Counted from the first letter of the stretch, positions 31,664 through 49,636 are shown. The stretch is 64,000 nt of DNA from an uncultured Bacteroidota bacterium (GCA_900696575.1 CAADHD010000018.1:151106-215105); one strand, 5' to 3'. Numbers and translations: made by a program. The notes: generated by a model from the sequence alone, not told the origin.

Positions 31664-31674
31664 CAGCGGGGGAA

Positions 31675-32964: not shown

Positions 32965-34266
32965 ATGCATTACTCATCATCTCTTTTACTTGTACCGGTA
33001 CTTGTAGCCGTACTCAGCGCAAAGCCGCTCAACGACAGCAAAACGGGTAACCGCACAGCCAAACCAAAAGATATAAGCAAAGGCTGCGTATTTCGCACGT
33101 TTTTCGGGGAAGACCCGCACGAACCGTTTTACATTCTTAAAACACCAGCTAAGGTCGAAGCATCTGTCAGCGATGCATTAACATGGGTATCGAAAGCGCA
33201 AAACAATGATGGCGGCTGGGGTGCAGGGCTGCACCAGGCACAACATGTCATGGATCCTCATGCCGTAAAATCGGATCCTGCATCCACCAGCATGGTGGCT
33301 ATGGCACTGCTCCGTTCAGGCAACACGCTTACTGCGGGAAAGTATTCTGCCAATCTGGTAAGAGCAACCGAATATCTTTTGAAACAGGTAGAGAACAGTG
33401 AAGAAGGCACACTGAATATTACCAACCTTACAGGAACTCAGATTCAGACAAAGCTGGGTAAGAACATTGATGTGGTAATGACCAGCCAGTATCTCACCAA
33501 CCTGCTTGATTATCTCACGGCAAATCCGAACATGACTTCACGGGTAAAGAAGGCCGTGAGTAAATGCGTAAACATGATTCAGAACGGGCAGAATCCCAAC
33601 GGCAGCCAGCAGGGGGCAGGTTGGGCCGGGGTATTGCAATCGTCATTTGCAGCCAATGCATTGGAAAGCGCCAAAGATAAAGGTGTTGCCGTTGATGAAA
33701 AGAAACTCAGCAAAGCACGCGATTACCAGAAGAAAAATTTTGACGATAAAAGCAACACGGCACGAACCGAAGATGCTGCAGGCATATTGCTTTATTCGGT
33801 TTCAGGTTCTGCACGTTCAAGTGCTAGAGAAGCAAGATTGGCAGAAGAAACATTAAAACGCGCCAAACACGAAGGGAAAGTTGCCGCTTCAGAACCGGTG
33901 AATGTGGATAATCTGCGTAAAGCCGGGCTGAGCGAAAGCGAAGCCATGCAGTACAGCACTGCTTACCATGTTAATGCAGCAGCCAAGAAAACGGCACAAC
34001 GTCAGGATGTGATGAATGGTTTCGGCAGCAATGGCGGGGAGGAGTTTTTATCCTTTCTTCAAACAGGCGAAAGCCTTATCATCAGCAAAGACAATGACTG
34101 GAAAAAATGGTACGATGATATAACTACACGACTGATGCAGATTCAGAATCCCAACGGAAGCTGGAACGGGCATCATTGCATTACCAGCCCCGTATTCTGT
34201 ACAGCAACTTGTCTTTTGATTCTCACCATCAACAATGATGCAGAGAAGCTGATGGGAAGTAATTAA
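32965..34266 (+). CDS. Secreted prenyltransferase/squalene-oxidase-repeat (alpha/alpha barrel) protein
   Basis: Signal peptide; QW-type repeats QNNDGGWG, QNPNGS, QNPNGSWNG. Confidence 0.8.
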   Translation: MHYSSSLLLVPVLVAVLSAKPLNDSKTGNRTAKPKDISKGCVFRTFFGEDPHEPFYILKTPAKVEASVSDALTWVSKAQNNDGGWGAGLHQAQHVMDPHAVKSDPASTSMVAMALLRSGNTLTAGKYSANLVRATEYLLKQVENSEEGTLNITNLTGTQIQTKLGKNIDVVMTSQYLTNLLDYLTANPNMTSRVKKAVSKCVNMIQNGQNPNGSQQGAGWAGVLQSSFAANALESAKDKGVAVDEKKLSKARDYQKKNFDDKSNTARTEDAAGILLYSVSGSARSSAREARLAEETLKRAKHEGKVAASEPVNVDNLRKAGLSESEAMQYSTAYHVNAAAKKTAQRQDVMNGFGSNGGEEFLSFLQTGESLIISKDNDWKKWYDDITTRLMQIQNPNGSWNGHHCITSPVFCTATCLLILTINNDAEKLMGSN

Positions 34267-34287
34267 ACTGACATAGAAGAAAGCCGT

Positions 34288-34557
34288 AAACCTCGAAGGG
34301 GCTTAGAACCCCTCCGAGGATTTTAGAGTTTTTATATCATCCCTTCGGGATTCTACTAATGCTGTATTTGTTTTCTACAATCATTCCACCGCTTCGCGGT
34401 TTTGACTTCGTTAATTAAATAAATCTGTGCAAATTTTTAATCCCGCAGGGTTGAATTGATTATAGCAAGATTGACTGAGCAGAACAAAACCCCGCAGGGA
34501 TGAAATGATTGTAGCAATTATTTCAATTTAGGGGCAGAACCCCGAAGGGGGGTGAAA
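34288..34557. repeat. Composite REP/BIME-like element 2 (hairpin plus five units)
   Basis: AAACCTCGAAGGGG..ACCCCTCCGAGG hairpin, then units near 34338, 34388 (reverse) and 34439, 34488, 34538 (forward); near-identical to 53074-53336. Confidence 0.88.
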
Positions 34558-34686
34558 CAACAAAACATTGCTGATGTAATCCGCTCAAACCTTTTGATAA
34601 ACCATTACTAAACATTTCATTTCAATTTCTTAATAATCAGATTTCAAGTTTGCCCCGGCAGTTTATAACCCGCTGCTTACTTATTC

Positions 34687-35514
34687 ATGAAATCAGGAAT
34701 TGCTTTACTCGTTATTTTTCTTCTAACGGCAACCGGCAGTCATGCTCAAAACGCTCTTGAAGGAATTATTATTGAGAAATACTACATCAGCGATGAAAAT
34801 GATTCTAAAGCCGAAGGTGCTGGATATCTTCCGCCCGGCTCAGTAACTTACCGTATTTATATTGACCTTGCAACAGACTGTAAACTCCATGCTGTTTATG
34901 GAGTAGAAGGACATGATTTAATCATCAGCACTACCACTGCTTTTTTTAATCATGAAATGTATGGGGCTGTAACCTCCAACGAAGTATTGGCAAGCACATT
35001 AATGCATAATTTAGTAATGCTTGACAGCTGGCTTTCTGTTGGCGCAGGGGCATCGGTCTATTTTGCATTGCCAAAAAGCAAGGATGATGAAAAAAATACA
35101 ACTAAGAACAATGATGGATTTCTGCAGAATAATCATCCTGATGCAGGGATTCCTTTGAAAGAAAGAGATGGATTGATGTATGCTTATCCTCAGCTGGCTG
35201 TTAATTTTTATGGGATTGATGATGGGTTGAAAAGCATTTTCGGAAAAACAAATTCGCGGATGCAAGGTCAGGAGTTTAAAACCAACAACGGTTCCTGGGC
35301 TTGTTTCGGAGGAGCTTATGGTCCTGACAAAGAAAATCTTGTCTGTATTGCACAATTGACAACCGATGGAGAGCTGTATTTTGAACTCAACATTCAGCTT
35401 GGAAAACCTGACGGTACTGTTGAAAATTATGTAGCCCGCAATCCTCAGGGAAATGAAAAAGTATATCCGCAGTTGATATTCCGGTCATCCTCTTTAAAAG
35501 CCGGACAGAACTAA
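34687..35514 (+). CDS. Secreted protein made of a single uncharacterised ~230-aa domain (copy 1)
   Basis: Signal peptide A|Q; YYISD, GSVTYRIY, DSWLSVG, AQLTTDG, FELNIQLG; no T9SS CTD. Confidence 0.8.
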   Translation: MKSGIALLVIFLLTATGSHAQNALEGIIIEKYYISDENDSKAEGAGYLPPGSVTYRIYIDLATDCKLHAVYGVEGHDLIISTTTAFFNHEMYGAVTSNEVLASTLMHNLVMLDSWLSVGAGASVYFALPKSKDDEKNTTKNNDGFLQNNHPDAGIPLKERDGLMYAYPQLAVNFYGIDDGLKSIFGKTNSRMQGQEFKTNNGSWACFGGAYGPDKENLVCIAQLTTDGELYFELNIQLGKPDGTVENYVARNPQGNEKVYPQLIFRSSSLKAGQN

Positions 35515-35520
35515 ACAGGA

Positions 35521-35611
35521 GTTAACCTTTTGTTAAGTCATCGGAAGTTAAGTTCAGTATGTCGTAACGCATGATTAACATTTTAAGCTGTTGTGTAAAC
35601 AAACAGTAACA
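35521..35611. promoter_or_regulatory. Cluster of 11-bp-period TAAC direct repeats
   Basis: GTTAAC-N5-GTTAAG (35521), GTAACG-CATGA-TTAACA (35564-35580), GTAAAC-N5-GTAACA (35595). Confidence 0.3.
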
Positions 35612-35684
35612 GTAAATTCAGTTAGCCTTAAAGCAACGGCCGTTCATTTGGCCAAATCAAACGAAACCATAAAACCATTACACT

Positions 35685-36794
35685 ATGAACAAAACCTTAC
35701 TCTCATTATTTGCATTATTACTTCTACATGCGGCTGCGCATTCACAAAACGGGCTGGAATGTGTGGCTGTAGAAATTTACTACATTTCCGATGCCAACGA
35801 TGCCGCTGCCAATCAGGATGGCGGAGTGCTGCCTGTGGGTTCGGTAACTTACCGCATTTATGCTGATATGTTGCCCGGTTACCGGTTTCAGGCTGCTTAC
35901 GGAGTAGATACTCCCGGAGCCGAACACGAATGCCGTATAGAAACAACCACTTTGTTTTTTAATAACGAAGACCGCGGAGCCACCACTCCTAATTTTACCA
36001 AAGCACAGGCTGCAGATAATACCGTAATGCTTGATTCCTGGCTCTCTGTGGGCGCAGCGTGTAAATTCAACTATGGAATTTTAAAATCGCTGGATGACGG
36101 TGTGGCCACCGTGGTAAATAATTACATTCCTCAGGTGTTACAAAACAACAATCCGCTGGCAGGTATTCCGCTTACGCAGCAGGATGGAATTATTGCCGGA
36201 AACGGTACTCCTGAGCCTGTAACTTTTGTTGGTATTACCAACGAAGTGTTGGTTTTTGATAATCAGAATGATGGAACTAACGGTCCGGTATTCTCTACCA
36301 TGAATGGCTCATGGGCTGCATTGAACGGTGCTGAAGGACCTGATCCTGTTGATAATAAAGTTTTGATTGCACAGATTACCACAGATGGCATTTTAACCTT
36401 CGAATTGAATATTCAGATTGGCACTCCGGGGGGTGGCGTTGAAAATTATGTTGCCAAAAACCCTGTTGGTAACGAAATCATGCTGCCTTGCCTGACTTTC
36501 AATTCTTCATCCATGATCAATGAAAACGGACAAACTGCAGGAACCAAAATGAATGTATATCCTAATCCGGTAAGAGACTTGTTTACATTGGAGATCTCTC
36601 CGTCAAAACCGGGGAACATCAGTTATGCACTCTTAAATCAGGAAGGCCGCAGGCTTGAAGTAAAGAAAATCGGATATGTAGATGATCAATTCTTTGAATA
36701 CATTGACCTATCAAATTATCCTGCCGGAACCTACCTGGTTGAACTTTACAATAATGGTATTGCTTCTTCCATGAAAAAAATCGTGAAGCAGTAA
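35685..36794 (+). CDS. T9SS cargo protein: uncharacterised domain (copy 2) + type A CTD
   Basis: Signal peptide S|Q; same domain motifs; CTD VYPNPVRD...LSNYPAGTYLVEL...KKIVKQ. Confidence 0.88.
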   Translation: MNKTLLSLFALLLLHAAAHSQNGLECVAVEIYYISDANDAAANQDGGVLPVGSVTYRIYADMLPGYRFQAAYGVDTPGAEHECRIETTTLFFNNEDRGATTPNFTKAQAADNTVMLDSWLSVGAACKFNYGILKSLDDGVATVVNNYIPQVLQNNNPLAGIPLTQQDGIIAGNGTPEPVTFVGITNEVLVFDNQNDGTNGPVFSTMNGSWAALNGAEGPDPVDNKVLIAQITTDGILTFELNIQIGTPGGGVENYVAKNPVGNEIMLPCLTFNSSSMINENGQTAGTKMNVYPNPVRDLFTLEISPSKPGNISYALLNQEGRRLEVKKIGYVDDQFFEYIDLSNYPAGTYLVELYNNGIASSMKKIVKQ

Positions 36795-36843
36795 AGAGCG
36801 TTTAAAACATCAGGCTTTTCTATTACATGCAAATTATGATAGC

Positions 36844-39800
36844 ATGAAAGCATTCAGTCGTTTCTTTTGTCTGATTCTGTTTAAGATGATTATTGTTTAT
36901 CATGCATCAGGACAGGGTATAATACGCGGAAAAATATCTGACCAGAATGGAGAGCCGCTGATTGGTGCCACTGTTGTGCTGAAAGACAACCGCAGTATAG
37001 GCACCAGCGCTGATCTGGACGGCAATTATTCGCTGAAGATTACCGATACTTCTGCTCAGACCCTGATTATTTCTTTCATCAGTTTCAAAACCATTGAAGA
37101 AACGGTTCATCCTAAAAAAGGAGAAGTCATTATCCGGAATTTCATCATGAAACCTGCCACACAGGAAATTCAGGCAGTTGAAATCACGGCCAAACAATTG
37201 CGCGAGAAGGAGTCTTACATTGAAAAGGTAAAAATCAATTCGTCCGTAACGCTTGATTATGTTTCTGCCGAAAGTATTAAACGCACAGGCGATGCCAATG
37301 TGGTAACTGCCGTAGCGCGGGTACCGGGTATTTCAACAACGGGAAGCATAATAACCGTAAGAGGCGTAGGCGACCGTTATATTAAAACAGCGGTGAACGG
37401 ATTTAAAATCCCAACCCTTGATCCGTTTACCAATAACTTTAAACTTGACCTGATTCCATCGGCTCTTGTTGACAATGTCATTGTTACCAAAACAGCCAGC
37501 GCTGATTTGCCCGGTGACTGGGCAGGCGCTTATCTTTCGGTTGAGACCAAAGATTACCCCGAGAATCTTAGCATCAACATTGAATCATCGTTAACCTATA
37601 ACCCGCAAACAACCTTTAAAAAAATACTGACTTCGCAACGCAGCAAAACCGACTGGCTTGGCTATGACAGCAACCTGCGCGAGTATCCGCATGAAGATTT
37701 TTCATCCGTACAAATCTCGCCAAGCCTGTACAAAGAATTTGTGGCGCTTGGACTGGGCGGTTACTTCAACTCCATAGGAGTAACTCCCAATACGCCCTGG
37801 AATGATACCTATTACAAACTGGCTCTTGTTGAGCTTGGACTTTTACCCAAGGCCCTTTTTGATAATGAAGCCGCTTTTACCGAAGCAAAAAACAAATTCC
37901 TGCAAGGCGATTATAGAAACCGGGCTTTTGAAATAATTAACCGCGATGCCATTGAAGCAGCCAAAAAATTTCCAACTAACTGGAACACTCAATACCGCAA
38001 AGCGCCTCTCGGGTTTTCACAGAATATCTCCGTAGGAAATCAAACCACACTGTTTAATCGTCCTCTAGGATTTCTTTTTGGTTTGCGCTACGGAAGTTCA
38101 ACGCAGTATGACCCGCGTTCAACTTACAACAAAGGGGTGAATATTGATGGAGTAAAAACCAGTTCGCTGGATACCTTGCCGCAAGTCATCAGCAAAGAAA
38201 CCAACGGGTGGAGCGCCCTGATGAATCTTTCTTACAAGCTCAATTCAAACAATAGTATTGGTTTTATCTTTATGCCTAATCTTACAGGCGTAAATGATGT
38301 ACGCATTACCCGCGAGCCTTATGTGGATGGCAATGCATATTACCTTATTAACCGCAGCCAGTTTTATGAGGAACGTAAACAGTTGGTTTATCAATTACAG
38401 TCTCAGCATTATATCCCATCCATTAAATTAAAGACTGATATCCGTGCTGCTTACACAAACGGCAGCAGCAATGCCCCCGATTTTAAACGAATCATCTACC
38501 TGAAAGACCAGCAGGACAGCGCGCTTTCCATTGGAGGCAGCATAGGTGGAAATGCTGTTGCTAAAGGCGGTATTCACCGTTACTACCGTTATCTGAATGA
38601 CGACTTGCTTGATACTAAAATCGCTTTTGAGCTTCCGCTTCGCCCTCAGCCCGGCATGGCCCGCAAACTCATGTTCGGTGGCGGGTACCTGCGTAACGAT
38701 TGGAAGTTCAGACAATACGATTACTTGGTCAACTTCAGTCCGTTTGGCTTTGACCCTCTCTATGAAGAAGATTTTGATTTCTATTTCAGGCCGGATAAGT
38801 TTGACTTTAATACTTTTCAGTTTAACGGCCAGCCTGTTTTAAGTGTCAGTAATTATTATTCGGAAAGCGGAAGTCCTTCGAACTTTATTATTGGTGAAAC
38901 AACCATTATTTCGGCCTACACAATGGCTGATATAAATATTACCTACAGGATAAGGGCTGCGGCAGGAGTTCGTGCGGAACGTGCCAACTTGTTTACCGAT
39001 GCTTTTGGTTATGACTCTTTAGGATATCTAAAAGACGATCCGCGCAGGCAGACCTTGGCCGATGACTTTATTCTCAATCCTGCCAACATTATAAAAACCA
39101 GCTATCTGCCCAGTTTCAATCTCGTTTACAAACTGAAAGATGACGAGTTCCGCCCGGTTAACCTCAGGCTAAATTACAGCCAGACGGTGGCGCGCCCCGG
39201 CCTGAGAGAGCTTTCCGAATCTGTGGTGTATGACAATGAGCGCAGAAAAAATGTCTTCGGGAATGCTGAATTGAAAATGGCAAACATTTACAATTACGAC
39301 ATCAGGACAGAATCCTATTTTAAAAACGGAGATAATGTTTCGCTAAGCTTATTCTACAAGCATATTAAAAATCATATTGAACTGATTGAATATACACAGG
39401 GCTTCACATGGGTGAATGTGGATAAATCCATTGTGCAGGGCATTGAACTGGAAGGAAGAAAAAAGCTTCCTTTCAATTTTGAACTGAAAGCAAATGTTAC
39501 GATGGTAAAATCAGAATCTGATGTTGTCAGAAAAAGAATTGTTGTAGAAAATGGCATTAAAGCATTTATACCAATTGATACGATTACTCGTACCATGTAC
39601 GGGCAGGCACCTTATGTAGTTAATGTTATTCTTGGCTACATTGCCGACAGCCTCGGTTTGCAGATTACCGCAAGCTATAACTTGCAGGGTAAACGGCTTG
39701 TGATTGCCGAATCGGATCTGCTTTCCAATATCTATGAATTGCCCCGTCATCATGTTGATTTTAAAATTTCCAAAAAGCTTGGAAAACATTTCAGCACCAG

Positions 39801-39921
39801 TTTAACCATACGCGATGTTTTAAATACTCCGGTAAGACTTGCAGGCGATGGATGGAAACTCGATTATGAGAACATTAAGTATGGAAGAAGCTATTCTTTA
39901 GGCATTAGTTACCGGTTTTAA
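36844..39921 (+). CDS. TonB-dependent receptor with N-terminal CarboxypepD_reg-like domain
   Basis: IRGKISDQNGEPLIGATV, plug RVPGIS..ITVRGVGDRY, barrel NYDIRTESY, C-terminal YSLGISYRF; no SusD follows. Confidence 0.92.
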   Translation: MKAFSRFFCLILFKMIIVYHASGQGIIRGKISDQNGEPLIGATVVLKDNRSIGTSADLDGNYSLKITDTSAQTLIISFISFKTIEETVHPKKGEVIIRNFIMKPATQEIQAVEITAKQLREKESYIEKVKINSSVTLDYVSAESIKRTGDANVVTAVARVPGISTTGSIITVRGVGDRYIKTAVNGFKIPTLDPFTNNFKLDLIPSALVDNVIVTKTASADLPGDWAGAYLSVETKDYPENLSINIESSLTYNPQTTFKKILTSQRSKTDWLGYDSNLREYPHEDFSSVQISPSLYKEFVALGLGGYFNSIGVTPNTPWNDTYYKLALVELGLLPKALFDNEAAFTEAKNKFLQGDYRNRAFEIINRDAIEAAKKFPTNWNTQYRKAPLGFSQNISVGNQTTLFNRPLGFLFGLRYGSSTQYDPRSTYNKGVNIDGVKTSSLDTLPQVISKETNGWSALMNLSYKLNSNNSIGFIFMPNLTGVNDVRITREPYVDGNAYYLINRSQFYEERKQLVYQLQSQHYIPSIKLKTDIRAAYTNGSSNAPDFKRIIYLKDQQDSALSIGGSIGGNAVAKGGIHRYYRYLNDDLLDTKIAFELPLRPQPGMARKLMFGGGYLRNDWKFRQYDYLVNFSPFGFDPLYEEDFDFYFRPDKFDFNTFQFNGQPVLSVSNYYSESGSPSNFIIGETTIISAYTMADINITYRIRAAAGVRAERANLFTDAFGYDSLGYLKDDPRRQTLADDFILNPANIIKTSYLPSFNLVYKLKDDEFRPVNLRLNYSQTVARPGLRELSESVVYDNERRKNVFGNAELKMANIYNYDIRTESYFKNGDNVSLSLFYKHIKNHIELIEYTQGFTWVNVDKSIVQGIELEGRKKLPFNFELKANVTMVKSESDVVRKRIVVENGIKAFIPIDTITRTMYGQAPYVVNVILGYIADSLGLQITASYNLQGKRLVIAESDLLSNIYELPRHHVDFKISKKLGKHFSTSLTIRDVLNTPVRLAGDGWKLDYENIKYGRSYSLGISYRF

Positions 39922-39933
39922 AAAAAACAGAAA

Positions 39934-41286
39934 ATGAAAATCAACTATCCCATCAAGCTCCTCATTATTCTGGCTATTACAGTAAAAGGCATTCATGCCA
40001 ATGCGCAGATTGAAAACCTTATTGTAGAAACTTATTATATCAGCGACTCATTAGACGCTACCGACAGTACGCAGGGGCGTACCATAGAACCTGGCTCGGT
40101 TACCTATCGTGTATATCTTGATCTTGCTGCCGGAAGTAAAATTAAAAAAATTTACGGAGATCAGAATCATCCGCTCATTATAAGAAGCACGGAAGATTTA
40201 TATAATAACATTGATCGCCCAAACGCCTATTTCGGCTATTTGATAAACCGAAATTGGTTTTCCGGCAATCCAACTATTAGCCTTGACAGTTGGCTAACAC
40301 TGGGTATTGCCTGCCGGCTTTCCTCCACACAATACTATGGTGTATTAAAAACAGAAGATACAGATGGCTCCTTCGTTGGTGGAAGTAACAATCAGGGAGG
40401 CACCAGCGGTATTCCCGGAGGCATATTGGTGAACAATGATCCCGAAGCCGGAATACCTTTAACGGTTGCTGATGGATATTTATCAGGAGCATCTCCTGCA
40501 GGCCAGTGGTTTGATTACGGTTTTTTTGATGCATCTCTCGGTCACGATACCACCGTTTTCGGATCGCTCTATACAGGTAAAGAATTCAACAGCCGTATAG
40601 CCGTACTTCAACAGGGCGATGGAGTAGCAGGCATAACGGCTGATAATATCGTGTTGGTGGCCCAGGTAACCACCAAAGGACAATTGTCTTTTGAACTGAA
40701 TGTTCAGCTTGAAGAAGCGGATGGTACTATTGTGCATTATGTGGCTGATGATTCAGTGCTTATTAATACTTCTGTACCTCTTTATATTGAGCGTCTTAGT
40801 CCGTTTCTTAAATACCCTCCTGTTTGTGGTTGTTTAAACACCGACTACCTTGAATACAGCGCGGCTAATGCCTGTGAAAATAATGACTCTTGCAAAACAT
40901 TAATCGTTTTCGGTTGCATGGATCCGCTTGCCTGTAATTACAACGCTGAGGCTAACTATAACATAAAGGAACTCTGCTGTTATCCGGGATTGTGTGCCGA
41001 CAGAGATATTGAAGTGGTTTGTCCGTCATTAAAGAAGGCAAGACTTTTGGTTTCACCGAATCCTGCCGGAAATCAGATTGTATGGAACTTGATTGGCCCG
41101 GATAATGAGGACGGTTTTTTCACTATCTATAATGTTTCGGGAGAAAAAATGCTTCAGGGGAATTGGTCATCTGTATCCGAAGAACACGTGTTAGAGGTAG
41201 GAAGATTGCCGGAAGGATTTTACATTTTACAGGTGATGACCCAAAAAGGACTTTCACTGCATCAGTCATTCGTTATTTCACGATGA
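39934..41286 (+). CDS. T9SS cargo protein: uncharacterised domain (copy 3) + Cys-rich GCMDP.ACNY repeats + CTD
   Basis: Signal peptide A|Q; domain motifs; CGCLNTDYLEY / FGCMDPLACNYN; CTD VSPNPAG...LPEGFYILQV. Confidence 0.85.
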   Translation: MKINYPIKLLIILAITVKGIHANAQIENLIVETYYISDSLDATDSTQGRTIEPGSVTYRVYLDLAAGSKIKKIYGDQNHPLIIRSTEDLYNNIDRPNAYFGYLINRNWFSGNPTISLDSWLTLGIACRLSSTQYYGVLKTEDTDGSFVGGSNNQGGTSGIPGGILVNNDPEAGIPLTVADGYLSGASPAGQWFDYGFFDASLGHDTTVFGSLYTGKEFNSRIAVLQQGDGVAGITADNIVLVAQVTTKGQLSFELNVQLEEADGTIVHYVADDSVLINTSVPLYIERLSPFLKYPPVCGCLNTDYLEYSAANACENNDSCKTLIVFGCMDPLACNYNAEANYNIKELCCYPGLCADRDIEVVCPSLKKARLLVSPNPAGNQIVWNLIGPDNEDGFFTIYNVSGEKMLQGNWSSVSEEHVLEVGRLPEGFYILQVMTQKGLSLHQSFVISR

Positions 41287-41290
41287 AGCC

Positions 41291-42046
41291 ATGATAAAAT
41301 CAGCAAAACCTTTTTTTATATCGTTGTCATTTTGGATGGCGGCTATTGCTATGTTACTTTTTTCCGGCTGTGGAAAAGAAGTGAAAGAAATAGAAGATCC
41401 TGTTTTTGAAAAAGGAACGGTAACGGATATGGAAGGCAACATCTATGAAACAGTAAAAATCGGAAATCAATGGTGGATGGCTGAAAATCTGAAGAGCACC
41501 AAATTCCGTGATGGTTCGGACATTACCTTTATATCAAGACTTAACCCGGTTCGGTGGGATACCATTAATTCCTCTGCTTATAGCCAATACGAAGATAATC
41601 CTTCAGCGCCCGGGTTGCTTTATAACTGGTATGCGGTGAGTGATGCACGCGGACTTGCTCCTGAAGGATGGCGGATAGCAACTGATGAAGACTGGAAAGA
41701 ATTGGAAAGACATGCAGGCATGAGCAATGACGAGGCGGATGGACTTGCGTGGAGGGGCACTTATGAAGGCGACCACCTTAAAGTAAAAGCCCCGGAAGGG
41801 TGGACGCTGTTCGGTACTGTTTGGGGAGATAATAAAACAGGCTTTGCTGCCCTTGGCGGAAGCTGCCGTTTATTCAACGGGAATTTTGGCATACCGGGAT
41901 TAAAACAATCCGGGTTCTGGTGGACTTCTTCTTCTTTTGAAAACGGCCAGGCCTGGTACCGTTATCTCGATTACAAGAAATCGCAGGTGTTTCGTTCGCA
42001 TATAATGCATTCTTATGGTATGAGTGTGCGTTGCGTAAAAAACTAA
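41291..42046 (+). CDS. FISUMP (Fibrobacter succinogenes major paralogous domain) lipoprotein
   Basis: Lipobox FSGC; VTDMEGNIYETVKIGNQWWMAENL, GLLYNWYAV, PEGWRIA, GFWWTSS, GMSVRCVKN. Confidence 0.92.
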   Translation: MIKSAKPFFISLSFWMAAIAMLLFSGCGKEVKEIEDPVFEKGTVTDMEGNIYETVKIGNQWWMAENLKSTKFRDGSDITFISRLNPVRWDTINSSAYSQYEDNPSAPGLLYNWYAVSDARGLAPEGWRIATDEDWKELERHAGMSNDEADGLAWRGTYEGDHLKVKAPEGWTLFGTVWGDNKTGFAALGGSCRLFNGNFGIPGLKQSGFWWTSSSFENGQAWYRYLDYKKSQVFRSHIMHSYGMSVRCVKN

Positions 42047-42283
42047 TTTACCGTTTTGTAAAACTTGTTATCAGAAGCCGGTTGGCTTACTGACAATATT
42101 GTTAGAGCATACTACGGTTCAGAATTTCGTAACACAGGTCATATTGGCTTAAACTTACAAAGCACTTTCCATAATGAAACTGTAGTGAATCCGTAACCTT
42201 AGGATTTATTTAACTAAACACATGACAGGTTGGTTTGCGCTGCACATCAATGATGGTGTGTTAAACGAAAAAACAAAAACAAA

Positions 42284-43921
42284 ATGAAACAAAAAACAAA
42301 AACCAAATGGATCATGGTATCAGCACTTGGGCTGCTGATGTCATTCGGAAGCATGGCCCAATCCAACTTAGGCGCTGATTGCGGATGTCCTACACCCGTA
42401 TCATCGCGACCCACAGTAGCTCTTTCTACTCTTGCCGTTTCAGGCGGGGCAACGGACGGTGATCTTATTGCCAACAGTACCGTACTTACCTGCGACAAAA
42501 CATGGATTCTTGACAAAAAAATCTATGTGCCTGACGGGAAATCGCTCACCATCCAGGCCGGAACAGTGATTAAGGGAGTGGATACGATTACCATTCCTGC
42601 TAATGCTGTTGCATTGGTGGTATCAAGAGGCGGTAAAATTTTCGCTAACGGTACACCCACATGTCAGATTGTATTCACTGCCAATAGCGACAACCTTAGC
42701 GGAACCTATGGCATAGCCAATCGTGGCAAATGGGGCGGGGTAGTTGTTTGCGGGCGTGCGGTAAACAACATTGTAAGTTGCAATACGCTTTATGGGGGCA
42801 GCCCGGGCGTTGCTTTCCCTGAAGGTTTTTCAGCAGCTAATTCGCGCATTCTTTATGGAGGTTCTGATAATGATGACAACTCTGGTATCATGAGATATGT
42901 TTCTATTCGTCATGCCGGAGCTGTTATTTCAGCCGGTAACGAATTGAACGGATTAACACTTGGATCTGTTGGCCGCGGCACTACTGTTGAATATATTGAA
43001 GTGGTTTCGAATGATGATGATGGTGTTGAAGTATTCGGGGGTACCGTAAACCTCAAGTACATTTCAACTATGTTTCTTGCTGATGATGGTCTTGACTGGG
43101 ACCATGGTTGGGTTGGTAAAGCGCAGTTTATTTTCAACCTTCAGGCCGACAGTATTACAGCACCAACCGGAGATAACGGGTTTGAAGCCGATGCTACTGA
43201 CCAGAAAAACAATTCTGCAACTCCACGTTCGCATCCTGTCGTTTATAATGCAACAATGATTGGTTCCGGCAAACGCCTGAATGTTGCTGATAACAGCGGC
43301 CACAATGCTATTAACGCTAAAGAACTTACCGAAGGTGAAATTTACAATTCAGTATTCGCCAATTTCAACAGCGGATTGAATATGACTAAATCCTTGGGCA
43401 GTTCATCGGCCTGCGGTTCGCACCTAACCGAAGCTTACGATAACTGGATTGCAGGTTCACTTAAAATTCAATGCAACACTTTCTTTATGATGAATGATGC
43501 CAATAACGCCAGATTTCTTGTTCTTGATAACAGCCTGGCCAGTGTTACTCCGGCAGATGTTGCCAAATTTGATACAGACGGCAACCTGCGTCCTACAGGC
43601 ACCGCTCCGATACCCGGCTTTGATCATGTTTGGGCTATGAACTCCTCTACCAATGTGGTTTCTGATAAGTTTGATGCTGTTCCGAATCCGGCATTATCTA
43701 CTACCTGCACTCCTCCTAATGATGGCTTTTTTGTAAATGCAAATTATCGCGGGGCATTCGCTTCTACCGGAAAACCCTGGCTATCTCCATGGGCTTATGC
43801 CACTGTTCTGGGAGTTACTTCTAACCTGCAACCCTGTCCTACAGATATAAACGGAGATGGCATTACCAACAATGCTGACTTCCTGATTCTGCTTGGCCAG
43901 TTTAACCAGTCTTGTAACTAA
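42284..43921 (+). CDS. Secreted beta-helix (pectin-lyase-like) protein with C-terminal dockerin-like/EF-hand tail
   Basis: SPI signal A|Q; GKWGGVV, DDNSGIMRYVSIRHAG, NELNGLTLGSVGRGT, DDGVEVFGG, DDGLDWD repeats; tail CPTDINGDGITNNADFLILLGQFNQSC. Confidence 0.8.
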   Translation: MKQKTKTKWIMVSALGLLMSFGSMAQSNLGADCGCPTPVSSRPTVALSTLAVSGGATDGDLIANSTVLTCDKTWILDKKIYVPDGKSLTIQAGTVIKGVDTITIPANAVALVVSRGGKIFANGTPTCQIVFTANSDNLSGTYGIANRGKWGGVVVCGRAVNNIVSCNTLYGGSPGVAFPEGFSAANSRILYGGSDNDDNSGIMRYVSIRHAGAVISAGNELNGLTLGSVGRGTTVEYIEVVSNDDDGVEVFGGTVNLKYISTMFLADDGLDWDHGWVGKAQFIFNLQADSITAPTGDNGFEADATDQKNNSATPRSHPVVYNATMIGSGKRLNVADNSGHNAINAKELTEGEIYNSVFANFNSGLNMTKSLGSSSACGSHLTEAYDNWIAGSLKIQCNTFFMMNDANNARFLVLDNSLASVTPADVAKFDTDGNLRPTGTAPIPGFDHVWAMNSSTNVVSDKFDAVPNPALSTTCTPPNDGFFVNANYRGAFASTGKPWLSPWAYATVLGVTSNLQPCPTDINGDGITNNADFLILLGQFNQSCN

Positions 43922-43962
43922 TTTCATCAGCAACATTCTTAAACTGTAAAACAGATAATCTT

Positions 43963-46900
43963 ATGAAAAAGATGATGAAAAGCATCATGCTGGGTTTGGC
44001 CCTCATGATAACAGCTACAATGACCAAAGCCCAAGGAATTGAAAACGTGCAAGTGGAAATCTTTTATGTTTCCAATGCAGCCGATGCTGCCGGCAGTGCC
44101 GGTACGCTGCCTGCCGGATCTATCACCTACCGTATTTATGTGGATATGCTTCCGGGTTATAACTTCCAGGCGCTTTACGGATTGCCCGGTAAAGACACCC
44201 TGCGTGTTCAAACTTCCACTTCATTCTTCAATAATGAAGATTATGGCGGTACAACTCCTTCCATAAGCGTTACTAACGTGCGGAAAAATTCTGCTTTGCT
44301 CGATTCGTACTTCTCAGTTGGCGGAGCAGCCAACGGAAGAGTGGGAGTATTGAAAACAGAAGATACGGATGGGTCACCGGGTAATGCCGATAACATCCTT
44401 CAGAACAATGACCCCTATGCAGGAGGCATTCCAATTAATATCGGAACTACTACCAACACTACTGCACGTGATGGAATGATTCCCGGATCGCCTGTAGCCG
44501 TTACCTTTGTTGGTATCTCTGCTGCAGAGTTAGATGTCTTTGACGGTACAAGCCAGTCAGGAAACTTCTTCCAAACAGAGAACGGCTCCGTAGCTGCTCT
44601 TGGAGGTGCTACCGGCCCAACAGCAGCCAACCGTGTGTTGGTTGGACAGTTTACCACTGATGGAGTGTTCTCTTTTGCTCTGAACATTCAGATTGGAACT
44701 CCCGGTGGCGGTGTTGAAAATTATGTTCACTCAAACCCATCTGCCGGTGAATTTACTGCTCCTTTCCTTAAGCAGACTTTTGCCCCTCCCGGCTCCAACA
44801 CCCCTCCAACCATCAGTATTATTTCTCCGGTTAACGGCTCCAGTGTACTTGTTGGCTCTACCGTTACTATTGATGCCAATGCCAATGATGCTGACGGAAC
44901 CATTGATTCTGTTCAGTTCTTTGTTGATGCTGTTTATATCGGCTCTGATTTAACAGGCCCGAACCCTTATACCATTAACTGGACAGCTACCCTCGGCCCT
45001 CATACTTTGACTGCCCGTGCCTATGACAACAATGGAGCCTCCACGTTATCTTCAGGCATTAACATCAACGTAACCAGCAACCCTCCTCCGGCAGTTGCCA
45101 TTACTTCACCTGCCAACGGAGCATTGTTTACGGCACCAGCCATCGTTAGTATTTCTGCTACGGCTACCGATCCCAATGGTACTGTTGACTCAGTTCAGTT
45201 TTTTGTGAACAGCGTGTATGTAGGCTCTGACATTACTCCTCCTACTCCGTTTACTTTTGACTGGACAAGCGTTATTGGCACTGCCTCGCTTACCGCCCGC
45301 GCATGGGATAATAACGGAGCCTCTACACTTTCGGCTGCCGTTAATATCAACATCCTTGATCCAAATGCCCTGGGATACAAAGTAACTACTGTTGTAGCAA
45401 ACTGTTCTCAGAATTTGTTCTGTATTCCCGTAACTGCTGTGGATACGGTTGACAATATCATTGGTTATGATGTTGTACTTGATTATGATGAGAATAAAGT
45501 TACTCCTACAGGCGTAATTTCTGTAAGCAATGCTTTGATCAATCCGACATGGACATCAACGGCTCATAGTATTAATTCTGTAAACGGCACTATGAACATT
45601 TCTGTTTTCTTCAATGCCAATGCTCCTTCCAATGCTAAATTTCAGGGAACAGGCGATATCTTTTGTGTTCAGTTTTCAAAGAACATCACTTTCGGTATTG
45701 CTGACACCGCTGACTTCTCTGTTACGCAGCTTCAGGAAAGTTATGCTAACGGAGTTCAGCAACAATTGGCCGATGCTGGAAAGTTTATTACTTTCTCGGA
45801 TACTGATTTGGATGGTAAACTGAAATTCTGGTTCGATAGCAGTCCGATTAAATACGATGCTTTTAACCCTGCTGCGCACCTTATTACCAATATCTATGGC
45901 AACGACAATACCTGCGCTAACCGTTCAGCTACGGCTGTTCAGCCCGACCTCAATGGCGATTTCACGTACGATACTCAAAACGGTTCGCATGTCGAAATCA
46001 TTAAAGACATTGCAGGTACTACCGATGTGCAGCCCGTTGTAAATGGTTTTGATGCCTTCCTTACCCGTCTGGTATTGATTAACGACTTGTCTTTTATTCC
46101 CACCATTTTCCAGATTATCTCTATGGATGTTAACACCGATGGGGTGGTAAGTGCGGGCGACCTTTCGCAGATTAACCAACGTGCCGTCTTGCAAATTCCC
46201 GAATTCAAACAAAGCTGGAATTATGACATCAACGGTTTACCTCTCGGTCCGCCTTCTAAAGACTGGCTCTTCGTCAATCAGTCAACCTTGAACAGCAATC
46301 TGGCTTATCAAATCTCATCTACCTATCCGGGCAATGACGGAGTGGGTTATTCAAAATCCAATGTTCCGCAAGTGCCTTTCTGTTTGCCTGTTCCTTCTAT
46401 TATACTTAGTGGATGTGTACAGATTCAGGATGCCACTTATTTTGGTATGTTGCTCGGAGATGTTAACGGAAACTTTGCTACGGTTGTTCCTAACAGCGAG
46501 TTCCGTGCAGGCAACGACAAAGTAGTGTTTGACATGGAAAAAGCCCGCATTGAAAACGGATACTTGGATGTACCGGTTTCTTTTGTAAGCAATGAAAAAG
46601 TTCATGCCATTGACTTTGCCCTGCAGTTTGATAACAGCAAACTGGAGTTCAACACCATCGTAAATCACAATAGCGATTTACAGGTGCTGGCTAACATGAA
46701 CACGGTGGACAACACGCTTCGCTTTACTTCCAACAGTCTTGTTACTGTGGCTGAAAACAGCACTCCTGTTTCTGTTCGTTTTGCCCTTAAGTCAAATGCA
46801 GTTACAGCAAATGACCTTTCAGCCGTAAGCGCTTTCCTTAACGGTGAGCGTACAGGCGCTGAAGTGAAAGGCGCTCAGTTAACGACTGATTTCAGTGGCG

Positions 46901-47130
46901 TAATGGTTAATGTGTTTCCCAACCCCGCCCATGAAATGCTTAATGTAACCGTGTCAGAAGATGCTTCTGTTCAGCTTCTCGACATCACCGGAAAACAGAT
47001 TCTTGTTGAGAAAAACATACTGGCCGGTGAAGCTCATCAACTTGATATACGTACGCTTGCCAAAGGCGTGTATGTACTGAAAGTGTTTAACAAAGGCTTT
47101 ATTTCATTGAATAAAGTGGTTCTTAATTAA
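43963..47130 (+). CDS. Scaffoldin-like T9SS cargo: uncharacterised domain (copy 4) + 2x Ig-like (Big_7) + cohesin + dockerin-like + cohesin + CTD
   Basis: PPTISIISP..DADGTIDSVQF..TLTARAYDNNGA x2; IPVTAV..IIGYDVVLDYD..GTGDIFCVQF; VNGFDAFL..DVNTDGVVSAGDL; VPVSF..AIDFALQFD; VFPNPAHE..LAKGVYVLKV. Confidence 0.8.
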   Translation: MKKMMKSIMLGLALMITATMTKAQGIENVQVEIFYVSNAADAAGSAGTLPAGSITYRIYVDMLPGYNFQALYGLPGKDTLRVQTSTSFFNNEDYGGTTPSISVTNVRKNSALLDSYFSVGGAANGRVGVLKTEDTDGSPGNADNILQNNDPYAGGIPINIGTTTNTTARDGMIPGSPVAVTFVGISAAELDVFDGTSQSGNFFQTENGSVAALGGATGPTAANRVLVGQFTTDGVFSFALNIQIGTPGGGVENYVHSNPSAGEFTAPFLKQTFAPPGSNTPPTISIISPVNGSSVLVGSTVTIDANANDADGTIDSVQFFVDAVYIGSDLTGPNPYTINWTATLGPHTLTARAYDNNGASTLSSGININVTSNPPPAVAITSPANGALFTAPAIVSISATATDPNGTVDSVQFFVNSVYVGSDITPPTPFTFDWTSVIGTASLTARAWDNNGASTLSAAVNINILDPNALGYKVTTVVANCSQNLFCIPVTAVDTVDNIIGYDVVLDYDENKVTPTGVISVSNALINPTWTSTAHSINSVNGTMNISVFFNANAPSNAKFQGTGDIFCVQFSKNITFGIADTADFSVTQLQESYANGVQQQLADAGKFITFSDTDLDGKLKFWFDSSPIKYDAFNPAAHLITNIYGNDNTCANRSATAVQPDLNGDFTYDTQNGSHVEIIKDIAGTTDVQPVVNGFDAFLTRLVLINDLSFIPTIFQIISMDVNTDGVVSAGDLSQINQRAVLQIPEFKQSWNYDINGLPLGPPSKDWLFVNQSTLNSNLAYQISSTYPGNDGVGYSKSNVPQVPFCLPVPSIILSGCVQIQDATYFGMLLGDVNGNFATVVPNSEFRAGNDKVVFDMEKARIENGYLDVPVSFVSNEKVHAIDFALQFDNSKLEFNTIVNHNSDLQVLANMNTVDNTLRFTSNSLVTVAENSTPVSVRFALKSNAVTANDLSAVSAFLNGERTGAEVKGAQLTTDFSGVMVNVFPNPAHEMLNVTVSEDASVQLLDITGKQILVEKNILAGEAHQLDIRTLAKGVYVLKVFNKGFISLNKVVLN

Positions 47131-47156
47131 AGCAAGGGAACGTTTAGCCCCCTGAG

Positions 47157-47198
47157 AAAATGCCCCGGCAAGTTTAGCGGCCGGGGCTTTTCTTTTTT
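47157..47198. terminator. Bidirectional intrinsic terminator
   Basis: GAAAAT-GCCCCGGC...GCCGGGGC-TTTTCTTTTTT between convergent operons. Confidence 0.75.
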
Positions 47199-47234
47199 CT
47201 TACGTTGCCGTTTGTATCATTAAAAACGATCTGA

Positions 47235-48563
47235 TTAAACCCGCTTAATAAAATCACTGTACCATCTACCCGAATTTTTTATTGTTCGCTTTAATGTTTC
47301 AAAATTCACATACACCAATCCGAAGCGTGGATGATATCCCTCACTCCATTCAAAATTATCGGTAAGCGACCACACAAAATAGCCTGAGACCGGACATCCT
47401 TCTTCTTTGGCTTTCAGCATCTGCTCAATGTAATGCTGTAGAAAATGGATTCGGTTATCGTCATTTACTTTGCCGTTTTCAATCGTATCATTAAAAGCGG
47501 CTCCATTTTCTGTTACGATGACTTGCCGGAAACCGTATTGACTGAATTTTTTTATCATGGCATAAAGTGATTCAGGATAAACTTCCCAGTTGAGTACGGT
47601 ATGATAAACCTTTCGTTCATGAGCAGGTACCGGCTTTCCGTTAAGAAAAGGAATATACCAGGCATGCCTGATAACCTCGCGGGTATAATTCTGTATTCCG
47701 ATAAAATCAAGCGGAGCGGTCATACGGATCTCATCGCCCGCTCTCATAATTTTTTCAACACGTTTCAGAAAAGGCAAATCCTTTACAGGATAACCCAGTC
47801 CGGCAGCAGGCTCTGCGAATAGCCGGTTAAGCAAGGCATCAAAACGGTGTGCTGCTTTTATATCTTTCTCTTTGGTTGAAAACGGTGTAATGTGCGAACA
47901 GGAAAAAGTTGAACCAATTAAATGCTGTTCTCCATACGAACGGATAACCCGTACTCCTTCGGCAAGGCTCAGCACTGCATGGTGCATGGCAGGAATAAAA
48001 TTTTTTAAGCCGCGTTTGCCGGGAGCATGAATGCCTAAGAAATACCCGGCTCCGGTAAATGCCATCGGCTCATTCAATACCATCCAGTGATTGGCCTTAT
48101 CTTGAAAATTTTTAAGACATACCTGTACATAATTGCAAAACCAGCTTACGATATCCCTGTTAACCCATCCTCCCTTTTCCTGCAGGGCCTGAGGCAAATC
48201 CCAGTGATAAAGCGTAACCCAAGGAGTTATGCCCCGCACCTGACAGGCATCCAGCACTCGGTGATAAAAACCCAGACCTTTTTGATTTACTGCCCCTGTG
48301 CCATCCGGAATAATTCTCGGCCACGAAAATGAAAACCGGAAATGGCGAATTCCAAGCTGATAAATAATATCCAGGTCTTCTTCAAAGCGGTAATAAAATT
48401 CCGTAGCCCTGTGTGCATGATGGCCGTTACGGATTTTCCTTTTCCGGCCGGTAAACACATCCCAGATGCTCAAGCCTTTTCCATCTTCCAGATAGGCGCC
48501 TTCCGTCTGAAAAGCAGAAGAAGCAACTCCCCAAATGAAATTGTTATTACCCTTTATAAGCAT
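47235..48563 (-). CDS. Beta-glucosidase (GH1)
   Basis: WGVASSAFQTEGA, RFSFSWPRI, TLYHWDLP, NEP acid/base, VTENG nucleophile, DNFEW. Confidence 0.95.
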   Translation of the reverse strand: MLIKGNNNFIWGVASSAFQTEGAYLEDGKGLSIWDVFTGRKRKIRNGHHAHRATEFYYRFEEDLDIIYQLGIRHFRFSFSWPRIIPDGTGAVNQKGLGFYHRVLDACQVRGITPWVTLYHWDLPQALQEKGGWVNRDIVSWFCNYVQVCLKNFQDKANHWMVLNEPMAFTGAGYFLGIHAPGKRGLKNFIPAMHHAVLSLAEGVRVIRSYGEQHLIGSTFSCSHITPFSTKEKDIKAAHRFDALLNRLFAEPAAGLGYPVKDLPFLKRVEKIMRAGDEIRMTAPLDFIGIQNYTREVIRHAWYIPFLNGKPVPAHERKVYHTVLNWEVYPESLYAMIKKFSQYGFRQVIVTENGAAFNDTIENGKVNDDNRIHFLQHYIEQMLKAKEEGCPVSGYFVWSLTDNFEWSEGYHPRFGLVYVNFETLKRTIKNSGRWYSDFIKRV

Positions 48564-48590
48564 GCAGGCAAAGATGATGCACCTGCTGTG

Positions 48591-49631: not shown

Positions 49632-49636
49632 GGTGT

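Follow-up and report, generated by a model that had tools for sequence, protein, structure and literature searches.

Domain X, a secreted protein family in a predicted Pho-regulated TonB-dependent cassette of uncultured Bacteroidota

Phosphate-starvation clusters and the X cassette

Phosphorus (P) limits growth in most fresh waters, where Bacteroidota are major degraders, and the role of TonB-dependent transporters (TBDTs) in its acquisition is an open question. The closest described systems are two clusters of Flavobacterium johnsoniae: Pus3 (Fjoh_3853-3859), with type IX secretion system (T9SS)-domain proteins, the lipoprotein FI and a TBDT, and Pus4 (Fjoh_0541-0549), with a glycosyltransferase (GT), PhoR, PhoB, a TBDT and the lipoprotein FII (Lidbury et al. 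2020, PMC8115612). Depletion of inorganic phosphate (Pi) strongly induces the lipoproteins FI, FII and FIII, TBDTs and the T9SS-domain proteins Fjoh_3854/3855 in this bacterium, FI being its most abundant exoprotein, and induction extends to lamin-tail-domain (LTD) nucleases, to PlcP (pf12850) and to a GT (pf04101) (PMC8115612). Fjoh_0543-0546 encode, in order, PhoR, PhoB, a TBDT (pf07715/pf13715/pf14905) and FII, a lipoprotein with a pectin-lyase fold (PMC8115612, Table 1). Systems of this kind, in which a Pi-starvation-induced TBDT is joined by a beta-helix partner and T9SS proteins, are known from omics work and functionally unsolved; a 2026 preprint finds the functions of Pus3 and Pus4 still hard to predict, and Pi-induced clusters of their type remain without an assigned function. 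A comparable pairing of a TBDT with a putative lipoprotein lid of the pectin-lyase superfamily is found in BT4055/BT4056 and in Caulobacter ElpS/CCNA_00170: BT4056, 40% identical to Fjoh_0546 and distantly related to ElpS, has been proposed as the lid of the TBDT BT4055, in a pairing kept in 621 genera (Price & Arkin, bioRxiv 10.1101/2023.03.17.533168). Here we describe a gene cassette with features of both, built around four proteins that share an unannotated domain, X, in a 64,000-nucleotide stretch of DNA from an uncultured Bacteroidota bacterium (GCA_900696575.1 CAADHD010000018.1:151106-215105). We refer to that whole stretch as the window and count positions from its first letter.

Seven plus-strand open reading frames (ORFs) lie between 34687 and 47130, with gaps of 5-238 nt (Table 1). 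Four of them, X1 to X4, carry the X domain and represent the classes Xa, Xb, Xc and Xd, respectively; the remaining three encode a TBDT, a FISUMP-domain lipoprotein and a 545-aa beta-helix protein, BH545. As in Pus3 and Pus4, the partners of the TBDT (pf13715 + pf07715) are a protein with a pectin-lyase fold and T9SS-domain proteins without an assigned Pfam family, and the clusters are tied to phoBR, PlcP and a GT. In contrast to those clusters, the beta-helix protein here has a signal peptidase I (SPI)-type signal and a dockerin-like tail but no lipid anchor, Xc and the FISUMP gene stand between the TBDT and beta-helix genes, there are four X paralogues, and an extracytoplasmic function (ECF) sigma factor/FecR regulator is lacking. 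Control by Pi starvation, measured in F. johnsoniae, is predicted here from Pho boxes. With BT4055/BT4056 the cassette shares a TBDT partnered by a beta-helix surface protein, a pairing found across hundreds of genera, and with ElpS and Fjoh_0546 the link to phosphate starvation; PF28492 lipoproteins homologous to BH545 have the same TBDT context. The window protein is not a lipoprotein, however, unlike BT4056 and ElpS, and the system is extended by X, FISUMP and cohesin-like proteins with a T9SS C-terminal domain (CTD). The Caulobacter ElpS system is reportedly that of Le Blastier 2010.

We propose that X is the ligand-capture head of a Pho-regulated, TonB-dependent apparatus for P uptake, a reading of the sequences that we regard as evenly poised between right and wrong. 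A TBDT, a PF28492 partner and predicted Pho control together argue for phosphorus acquisition rather than generic adhesion. Searches of the literature for the cassette as such found nothing. The X family and the arrangement of its four paralogues, the entire cassette, the beta-helix variant with a dockerin-like tail in place of a lipid anchor, and a Pho-box prediction for these Bacteroidota all appear to be undescribed in the literature searched.

The X domain and its position-specific paralogues

X is found directly after the signal peptide at the start of each of the four ORFs. The initial annotation had taken the N-terminal domains of the ORFs beginning at 34687, 35685, 39934 and 43963 for copies of one uncharacterised extracellular domain, and both MAFFT and BLASTP confirm their homology: identities among the four are 33-50% (36-50% when measured against the first copy), 56 columns of the alignment are invariant, and two more divergent pairs are recovered at 1e-40 (X1/X3, 35% over 271 aa) and 6e-26 (X3/X4). 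A six-frame scan of the window with a hidden Markov model (HMM) found exactly four copies and none in shuffled translations, which, the model having been built from those same copies, shows only the absence of a fifth. The length first given, ~230 aa, fell slightly short of the ~245-250 aa of the alignment (mature residues ~23-270). Most of the motifs first quoted also stand, while several fail in the third or first copy: 'FFN.E' reads LYNNID in X3, where the last G of 'F.LN(I/V)Q.G' is replaced by E, and 'G.LK.ED.DG' reads ALPKSKDDEK in X1.

The domain belongs to no named family that we could detect, as had been suspected, and a strong match to a characterised Pfam or enzyme family was looked for and not found. 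Pfam returned nothing for X at E<=0.01 among the window proteins or at E<=5 among 48 family members, NCBIfam nothing for the X region, and sequence and profile searches of the PDB at E<=10 matched only the CTD; precomputed Pfam annotation of X homologues consists of PF18962 and PF17957 only. Structure prediction with AlphaFold2 (AF2) and a Foldseek comparison, one of the checks originally suggested for the domain, gave from a 48-sequence alignment a confident model of X1 (pLDDT 86.5, pTM 0.85), mostly beta with a long loop-rich insert at residues ~83-162. Foldseek found no PDB match to this model at E<=1e-3 (best 6lxh, SdrC, E 0.03, TMq 0.26; YcnI at TMt 0.42-0.45 and E ~0.1) and nothing significant in BFVD (best E 0.049). 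YcnI/copper and MSCRAMM/Flo adhesin folds were rejected for X in view of the TM of ~0.25 and of the conserved residues, which include no invariant Cys or Met and H76 as the sole His. Neither do those residues support a haem/NEAT-like or other metal-site motif, which we retain as a mechanistic analogy only. X domains are acidic (median isoelectric point 4.25-5.2), and their D/N-rich acidic sequence suggests Ca binding. By computation, then, X is a new secreted domain family, acidic and mostly beta, with no detectable relative of known structure.

This family is large, with at least 1975 clusters at 90% identity and at least 1388 at 50%; 587 of the representatives at 50% score below 1e-30, and some proteins carry 2-4 tandem X copies. 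Source databases call its members nothing more specific than 'hypothetical protein' or 'T9SS type A sorting domain-containing protein', and the clusters of ten divergent X proteins, when looked up, carried no informative names either. When one genome per GTDB species was scanned, 449 stretches encoded a relative of X; the best 80 are all from metagenome-assembled genomes (MAGs) of uncultured Bacteroidota. Isolate and sample names suggest that the carriers live in lakes, reservoirs, groundwater, activated sludge and soil.

Gene order is conserved as Xa; Xb-TBDT-Xc-FISUMP lipoprotein; BH545 (PF28492)-Xd-(cohesin-like CTD protein). ORFs at 78 genome loci were labelled by similarity to the window proteins: X-TBDT is seen in 68 loci and X-TBDT-X-FISUMP in 52, and 39 continue with BH545, 36 of them on to a further X protein, the remainder being ended by the contig or locus. 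Two X genes precede the TBDT in 47 of the 78. An X domain has its nearest neighbour in the same position class in nearly all cases (Xa 45/49, Xb 64/70, Xc 57/57, Xd 38/44), with 50-60% identity inside a class and 34-51% across classes. Because X domains cluster by position and not by genome, the four copies are ancient paralogues with their own orthologues; they had been read as a local expansion, an interpretation that the same cassette in 78 other loci overturns. Long-standing subfunctionalisation therefore takes its place.

The four architectures differ in anchor and reach, largely as first described. Matches to the T9SS CTD (PF18962/TIGR04183), together with a Sec signal, are found in X2 (37.7 bits; Por_Secre_tail at 2.6e-09, TIGR04183 also matched), X3 (27.2 bits) and X4 (45 bits), and no T9SS CTD is detected in X1 by Pfam or NCBIfam, nor in 47 of 48 members of the Xa class, which consist of X alone (often with a basic tail) or of X + Big_7. 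X + CTD is the form of all 69 Xb orthologues, and 55 of 56 Xc orthologues place a Cys-rich module between the two, whose ten Cys follow a pattern kept in the 56 (CGC..DSC..GC.D..ACNY..LCCYPG.C.DRD..VCP). In X3 this module lies at 40825-41050 (residues ~297-365), and its fuller pattern in the class is CGC.D..YLEY...C...DSC..IVFGC.D..ACNY....NFN...LCCYPG.C.DRD..VVCP; neither the module nor the CGCP motif of BH545 (below) has an assigned family. The Xd class is long and variable. In X4 the two Big_7 immunoglobulin (Ig)-like domains and the CTD are strong Pfam matches; of the cohesin and dockerin originally assigned to it, the cohesin barely passes its cut-off (25.0 against 24.1 bits) and the dockerin falls short of its own (19.7 against 22.9). 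A cohesin-like module also occurs in a 262-aa CTD protein and a DxNxDGxxxxxD Ca-loop in both BH545 and X4, which recalls the cohesin-dockerin contact of cellulosomes; in contrast to cellulosomes there is a single half-dockerin loop, Pfam scores are borderline or sub-threshold, and neither module recurs among 51 long members of the X family. In these long proteins no catalytic fusion partner recurs either: Por_Secre_tail is found in 43 of the 51, and other partners are Big_7, Ig_7, PKD, TSP3, EF-hand and Big_2. X forms the N-terminal tip in most of the listed family members, and the rest of these proteins consists only of stalk and anchor modules, which agrees with a distal binding head. The extracellular placement first assigned to X is supported.

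The signal peptides of X1-X4 and BH545 all end in A followed by Q (HAQ, HSQ, NAQ, KAQ, MAQ). Under the Bacteroidetes 'Q-rule', proteins bear an N-terminal pyroglutamate after signal peptidase I, and these ends are consistent with that rule.

Thirty-two residues are kept in at least 93% of 244 X domains, in all four classes: E30, Y32, Y33, D39, L48, G51, T54, Y55, R56, G72, H76, F86, N88, D113, W115, G119, K130, D133, L146, D161, G162, G209, G212, N217, L220, Q223, T225, T226, G228, N235, V249 and L263. Since the same residues recur in every class, the four paralogues keep one site. Several of them alternate along the model strands 24-34, 53-61 and 218-226, which suggests a polar face on one predicted sheet.

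The partner proteins are only partly familiar. The window TBDT finds its best NCBIfam match in the TonB-Xanth-Caul subfamily (TIGR01782, 181 bits) and scores 67 bits with TIGR04056, both under the cut-off (368.25 for TIGR04056); compared with solved structures, its N-terminal extension matches SusC homologues and its barrel matches nothing. As in SusCD utilisomes, we propose that accessory surface proteins capture substrate for the TBDT. The cassette differs from such systems in that no SusD family match was found among its proteins (Pfam, NCBIfam), the transporter reaches 67 of the 368 bits required of a SusC, its accessory proteins are cargo for the T9SS and not lipoproteins, Pho-type regulation is predicted and there are no carbohydrate-active enzymes (CAZymes). 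The position of the FISUMP lipoprotein is kept in 52 loci. Directly 3' of Xd, other genomes encode a ~250-aa CTD protein, and the cohesin-like protein of the window is its orthologue (40% identity, 2e-46 to L086:15112-15858), displaced by a minus-strand block that separates it from X4; visual comparison aligns it with the cohesin-like portion of X4.

BH545 had no match in a Pfam scan of the window proteins, while precomputed annotation places PF28492 (Beta_helix_4) on it and on all its listed homologues. The AF2 model is a right-handed beta-helix (pLDDT 85.1) with weak, generic Foldseek matches (TM 0.17-0.33). Best among them are alginate lyases of polysaccharide lyase family 6 (PL6; 3.3e-4 and 9.8e-4), and after these come tailspikes, Pel9A, chondroitinase B, GH110 and pectin methylesterases. 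Invariant in 45 orthologues are an N-terminal Q...G..CGCP, R209, K258, acidic ladders (D245 D246 E249 / D267 D268 D271 D273 / D297 N298 E301 D303) and a C-terminal loop, C518...C544, with a dockerin- or EF-hand-like DxNxDGxxxxxD; the match of this tail to the 2y3n dockerin is weak (E 0.13). The signal is of SPI type, ending ..SMA/Q, and with CGCP at residues 33-36 and no lipobox BH545 is not a surface lipoprotein. Although Xc and FISUMP lie between its gene and that of the TBDT, the two are directly adjacent in three variant loci (L033, L054, L092). BH545 is 40% identical (2e-61) to the TBDT-adjacent lipoprotein of a further locus, L170, whose TBDT is 25-29% identical (7e-34) to that of the window, and 36% identical (6e-49) to a 458-aa lipoprotein of L092 with the lipobox TSC-NKDE. 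Homologues of the latter form at least 6171 clusters, and all those listed carry PF28492. Named cultured homologues of these beta-helix proteins were not found among the best 120 matches of either search, all of them unnamed metagenome proteins.

A predicted Pho box and physical links to phosphorus genes

Motif discovery in the 300-nt regions 5' of the first X gene revealed a shared direct repeat whose core, TTAAC-n6-(A/G)TAAT, sets a pair of (T)TAA(C/T) half-sites at 11-bp spacing. In 81% of 59 non-redundant regions, compared with 1.1% of shuffles, the refined motif reaches at least 12 bits; it generally sits 80-130 nt upstream of the ATG. Across 1.28 Mb of loci there are 107 matches of at least 13 bits, almost all before cassette genes: Xa, Xb, which has a copy to itself, BH545, additional X genes and a variant TBDT. 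An identical layout, 8 bp + 3 bp around a TTAA core, characterises the experimentally defined Pho box of cyanobacteria, PyTTAAPyPy(T/A), to which the PhoB homologue SphR binds (PMC4195498).

An independent set was assembled from 80 metagenome loci with relatives of the PstS encoded in a split cassette (L088, below), giving 61 non-redundant 5' regions. The cassette-only matrix reaches 12 bits or more in 29.5% of these, compared with 0.2% of shuffled, 0% of coding and 4.9% of opposite-strand controls, and 14 bits or more in 26%, compared with 0% of shuffles. Sites fall between -64 and -122, with two weaker ones near -220, which matches the spacing from the ATG seen in the cassette; they are often tandem with an 11-nt offset. 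In the pstS loci, genes for an OprP-like phosphate porin, for a PhoU-domain Na/Pi cotransporter and for a small winged-helix protein are preceded by the motif as well. A motif common to the promoters of the cassette, pstS, the OprP-like porin and the Na/Pi cotransporter is predicted to be a Pho box. In the reciprocal test, which is not fully independent because the pstS-derived matrix (CTTAACATAAACTTAACATT) was built from instances first chosen with the cassette matrix, sites of at least 10 bits precede 58% of Xa, 62% of Xb, 13% of BH545 and 35% of the remaining X genes; for 334 unrelated flank genes the figure is 2%. The TBDT, Xc, FISUMP and Xd genes have tiny upstream gaps (median 63 nt before the TBDT and 12 nt before Xc) and no site, implying co-transcription. 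Taken at the level of the family, these cis-elements make it probable that the cassette belongs to the Pho regulon, and the predicted Pho box is usable for mapping such regulons in MAGs.

In the window itself, the X1-X2 gap holds a predicted array; its final three half-sites, 75-125 nt upstream of the X2 start codon, keep an 11-bp phase. With the pstS matrix the stretch 35563-35582 (+), located 122 nt 5' of X2, scores 13.2 bits, and with the cassette matrix 35514-35540 scores 12.6 bits. Its blocks are kept in the close relatives L171 and L173. The candidate site before X1, ~70-90 nt from the ATG and followed by a TTTG element, is likewise a block kept in both relatives while the spacer around it varies, which is weak evidence. 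Over the whole window the pstS matrix finds 2 matches of at least 13 bits against 0.385 expected from shuffles, and 3 against 0.875 at 11.5 bits or more. The highest precedes the ppk1-ppx operon, and another, which scores below 8.5 bits with the cassette matrix, precedes a PlcP-like gene; both appeared with a first hand-built matrix, were lost with the refined cassette matrix and returned with the pstS matrix, and we treat them as tentative. A 425-aa T9SS CTD protein with no other Pfam domain (51777-53054, +) has a 10.9-bit Pho-box-like site at 51698-51717, 79 nt upstream, and may be a further Pho-regulated surface protein. Rfam at E<=1 over 31000-48000 gave chance-level matches only, with no riboswitch or leader RNA.

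Phosphorus genes are also physically linked to the cassette and to PF28492 partners. In one contig (L088, European Nucleotide Archive ERZ27280329 k141_511684, 155-13336) pstS/pstC/pstA-like genes lie between the FISUMP and beta-helix genes; the same insert holds a gene resembling LMWPc phosphatase or arsenate reductase and an ArsR regulator. In L092 (76-3087) a TBDT fragment and a PF28492 lipoprotein are followed by pstS with a Pho box. In L169 and L170 a PF28492 lipoprotein follows a TBDT (PF13715, PF07715; plus PF14905 in L170) beside a response regulator and a histidine kinase, the layout of Fjoh_0543-0546, and L170 also has a Na/Pi cotransporter. PlcP-like and GT genes flank the cassette in 7 other loci, 3 of them with a gene for a protein of glycoside hydrolase family 1 (GH1); genes for Ppx and for OmpR-type regulators each recur beside it in 4 loci. 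None of the regulators, inner-membrane transporters or enzymes flanking the cassette loci is universal, P-related genes recurring in subsets only. The GH1-GT-PlcP-like minus-strand block of the window resembles the plcP-agt lipid-remodelling pair known from P-starved bacteria. Elsewhere, further genes that the motif precedes or to which it is linked encode a T9SS protein with two lamin-tail domains (L083, 3311-5102) and small stand-alone Trans_reg_C winged-helix proteins, beside pstS (L094, 2585-2972) and beside the cassette (L086, 16066-16356).

Proposed function, alternatives and neighbouring features

In the mechanism we envisage, Pi limitation would lead PhoB to turn the cassette on, and the T9SS would export Xb, Xc and Xd and fix them on the cell surface at three heights: Xb directly on its CTD, Xc on a disulfide knot and Xd on a long Ig stalk. 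All three would bind the same P-containing substrate through the conserved polar and aromatic site, probably with Ca2+; a polyanionic organophosphate, polyphosphate or metal- or mineral-associated phosphate appears likely. The substrate would then be handed from the X proteins to the TBDT, with BH545 as a lid or processing partner that, having no lipid anchor such as its relatives possess, may be attached to the cohesin-like modules through its dockerin-like loop. The unanchored Xa would most likely be a receiving paralogue in the periplasm or at the transporter.

It is tempting to combine these steps into a relay, in which one binding fold at three surface heights, plus an unanchored copy, passes a P compound to the TBDT and its lid; candidate ligands are polyphosphate, polyanions that are phytate-like or derived from nucleic acids, and phosphate on Ca/Fe colloids, and in place of a lipid anchor a minimal cohesin-dockerin contact would dock the beta-helix lid. 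So complete a joint claim is unlikely to hold in full, and such a relay would be one not described for Gram-negative bacteria. The haem relay of Isd/NEAT proteins in Gram-positive bacteria offers an analogy only: there too a single domain is reused in surface proteins of differing reach, encoded around a transporter and induced by starvation, but sequence and fold are unrelated, the envelope, anchor (T9SS/CTD versus sortase), transporter and nutrient differ, and transfer from X to X is hypothetical. If true, the relay would be a major unrecognised route of P acquisition in uncultured Bacteroidota of fresh water, groundwater and activated sludge, would supply a function for clusters of the Pus3/Pus4 type and would represent a new principle of nutrient capture in diderms.

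Several observations weigh against the proposed role of X in P capture. The cassette encodes no recognisable phosphatase or inner-membrane transporter (Pfam, NCBIfam), and the beta-helix fold and FISUMP domain would suit a glycan system as well. The D, E, H, K, R, Y and T sets among the 32 kept residues are as suitable for a catalytic centre as for binding, and Xa was localised solely by its missing sorting signals. BH545 is no lipoprotein, unlike its PF28492 relatives, and is presumed to correspond to Fjoh_0546, BT4056 and ElpS from a shared Pfam family, fold class and gene context. The Pho-box evidence in the window is modest, with one 13.2-bit cassette site (before X2), a degenerate site before X1 (-0.9 bits by the matrices) and none found before BH545; to this is added the partial dependence of the reciprocal test.

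In the main alternative X would be a new hydrolase working outside the cell or in the periplasm, such as a Ca2+-dependent phosphoesterase, that frees phosphate or small phosphorylated products beside the transporter, the four paralogues being the same enzyme at different positions. The degree of conservation, with E30, D39, H76, D113, K130, D133, D161, R56, three Tyr and three Thr among the kept residues, exceeds the need of a simple adhesive module, and the cassette is predicted to be Pho-regulated yet lacks a known phosphatase family. A Caulobacter relative of the beta-helix partner has, moreover, been linked to phosphatase activity in work to which a passage of PMC8115612 refers. X nevertheless resembles no hydrolase in sequence or fold (Pfam, NCBIfam, PDB, Foldseek), its modelled fold is mostly beta with long loops, and location at stalk tips and the keeping of one site by several paralogues are typical of binding relays; an enzymatic X seems to us rather unlikely.

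Two further explanations leave phosphorus transport aside. Were the locus an unconventional polysaccharide-utilisation system without SusD, X would bind glycans in the manner of surface glycan-binding proteins or carbohydrate-binding modules (CBMs), BH545 would be a polysaccharide lyase or hydrolase and FISUMP a lectin-like lipoprotein. The PL6 matches of BH545 and the TonB-Xanth-Caul affinity of the TBDT would fit, the conserved Tyr/Trp and acidic Ca-like loops of X recall many CBMs, 19 loci adjoin a cluster for sulfated-polysaccharide synthesis, and GH1 is a recurrent neighbour. This we think distinctly improbable, as the promoters carry a pstS-type motif, no SusD, hybrid two-component system (HTCS)/ECF regulator or CAZyme is conserved in or beside the cassette, the Foldseek matches of BH545 are weak and of a kind common to beta-helices, PF28492 relatives accompany phoBR-like, pstS and Na/Pi genes, and the sulfotransferase neighbourhood is limited to a subset of loci. 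Slightly less probable still is that the X proteins are starvation-made adhesins or a surface coat, attaching cells to particles, algae or minerals, or scaffolding other surface proteins, and delivering nothing to the transporter. N-terminal heads on Ig-like stalks with a T9SS anchor, cohesin- and dockerin-like modules, and Foldseek lists headed by Gram-positive and fungal adhesins (SdrC/D, UafA, Als3, Flo) would accord with this, but those matches are all non-significant. The gene order around the TBDT is strict, Xb and Xc are predicted to be co-transcribed with it, an unanchored paralogue, Xa, is a constant component, and the same site residues persist in all classes, which is unusual in that adhesins tend to diversify.

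Whatever its ligand, the family to which we assign a putative P-capture role is a large and unannotated one (at least 1388 clusters at 50% identity), found among the listed matches only in MAGs and set within a conserved apparatus of 7-8 genes. Table 1 collects the features of the window on which the argument draws.

Table 1. Cassette genes, candidate regulatory sites and associated genes in the 64,000-nucleotide window
Feature	Position	Strand	Description
Top Pho-box-like match	10486-10505	+	CTTAACATTGGCATAATGTT; 15.6 bits, pstS matrix; ~300 nt before ppk1-ppx operon (10790-13761); tentative
Candidate site before X1	34594-34620	+	GATAAACCATTACTAAACATTT; two TAA(A/T)C-type half-sites 11 bp apart
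Xa (X1)	34687-35514	+	275 aa; signal peptide + X only (domain ~34753-35496); no T9SS CTD, no lipobox
Predicted Pho-box array	35518-35611	+	X1-X2 gap
Array part	35522-35537	+	TTAACCTTTTGTTAAG
Array part	35563-35582	+	CGTAACGCATGATTAACATT
Array part	~35595-35611	+	GTAAACAAACAGTAACA
Xb (X2)	35685-36794	+	369 aa; X (domain ~35751-36509) + T9SS type A CTD
TBDT	36844-39921	+	CarboxypepD_reg-like + plug + barrel; not a SusC
Xc (X3)	39934-41286	+	450 aa; X (domain ~40006-40809) + ~70-aa 10-Cys module + CTD
FISUMP-domain lipoprotein	41291-42046	+	Lipobox ..FSGC, then acidic stretch; Fib_succ_major 8.6e-45
BH545	42284-43921	+	Right-handed beta-helix (model); PF28492; SPI signal
Xd (X4)	43963-47130	+	1055 aa; X (domain ~44035-44778) + 2 Big_7 + cohesin-like + EF-hand/dockerin-like + CTD
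Minus-strand block	47235-50527	-	GH1, 47235-48563; glycosyltransferase (Glyco_trans_1_3), 48591-49631; PlcP-like metallophosphoesterase, 49637-50527
Pho-box-like site	50678-50697	-	GTTAACCTTGACATAACAAT; 11.7 bits, pstS matrix; 151 nt before PlcP-like gene; tentative
Cohesin-like CTD protein	50804-51592	+	262 aa; cohesin-like module + CTD; displaced orthologue of the gene after Xd elsewhere

Directly upstream of the cassette, a 433-aa secreted protein (32965-34266, +) has weak matches to squalene-hopene-cyclase/prenyltransferase repeats (alpha-toroid); we rejected it as a cassette member, since it is kept only in close relatives of the window (e.g. L171). In the 420-nt spacer that follows, 5' of X1, about six copies of a ~50-nt dispersed repeat occur in both orientations (34286-34560), with one more in a different intergenic region (53218-53247). 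The repeat consists of a GC hairpin (CCCCGCAGGG / CCCCGAAGGG / CCCTTCGGG) followed by ATGAAATGATTGTAGCAA, and is similar to repetitive extragenic palindromes (REP) or miniature inverted-repeat transposable elements (MITE). Further upstream, two adjacent genes for large secreted amidohydrolase-family proteins (468 and 1031 aa; 26600-31007, -), with called ORFs that overlap by ~95 nt, are separated from the cassette by a lone AbiV-type HEPN abortive-infection gene (PF18728, 9.6e-12; 31675-32316, -).

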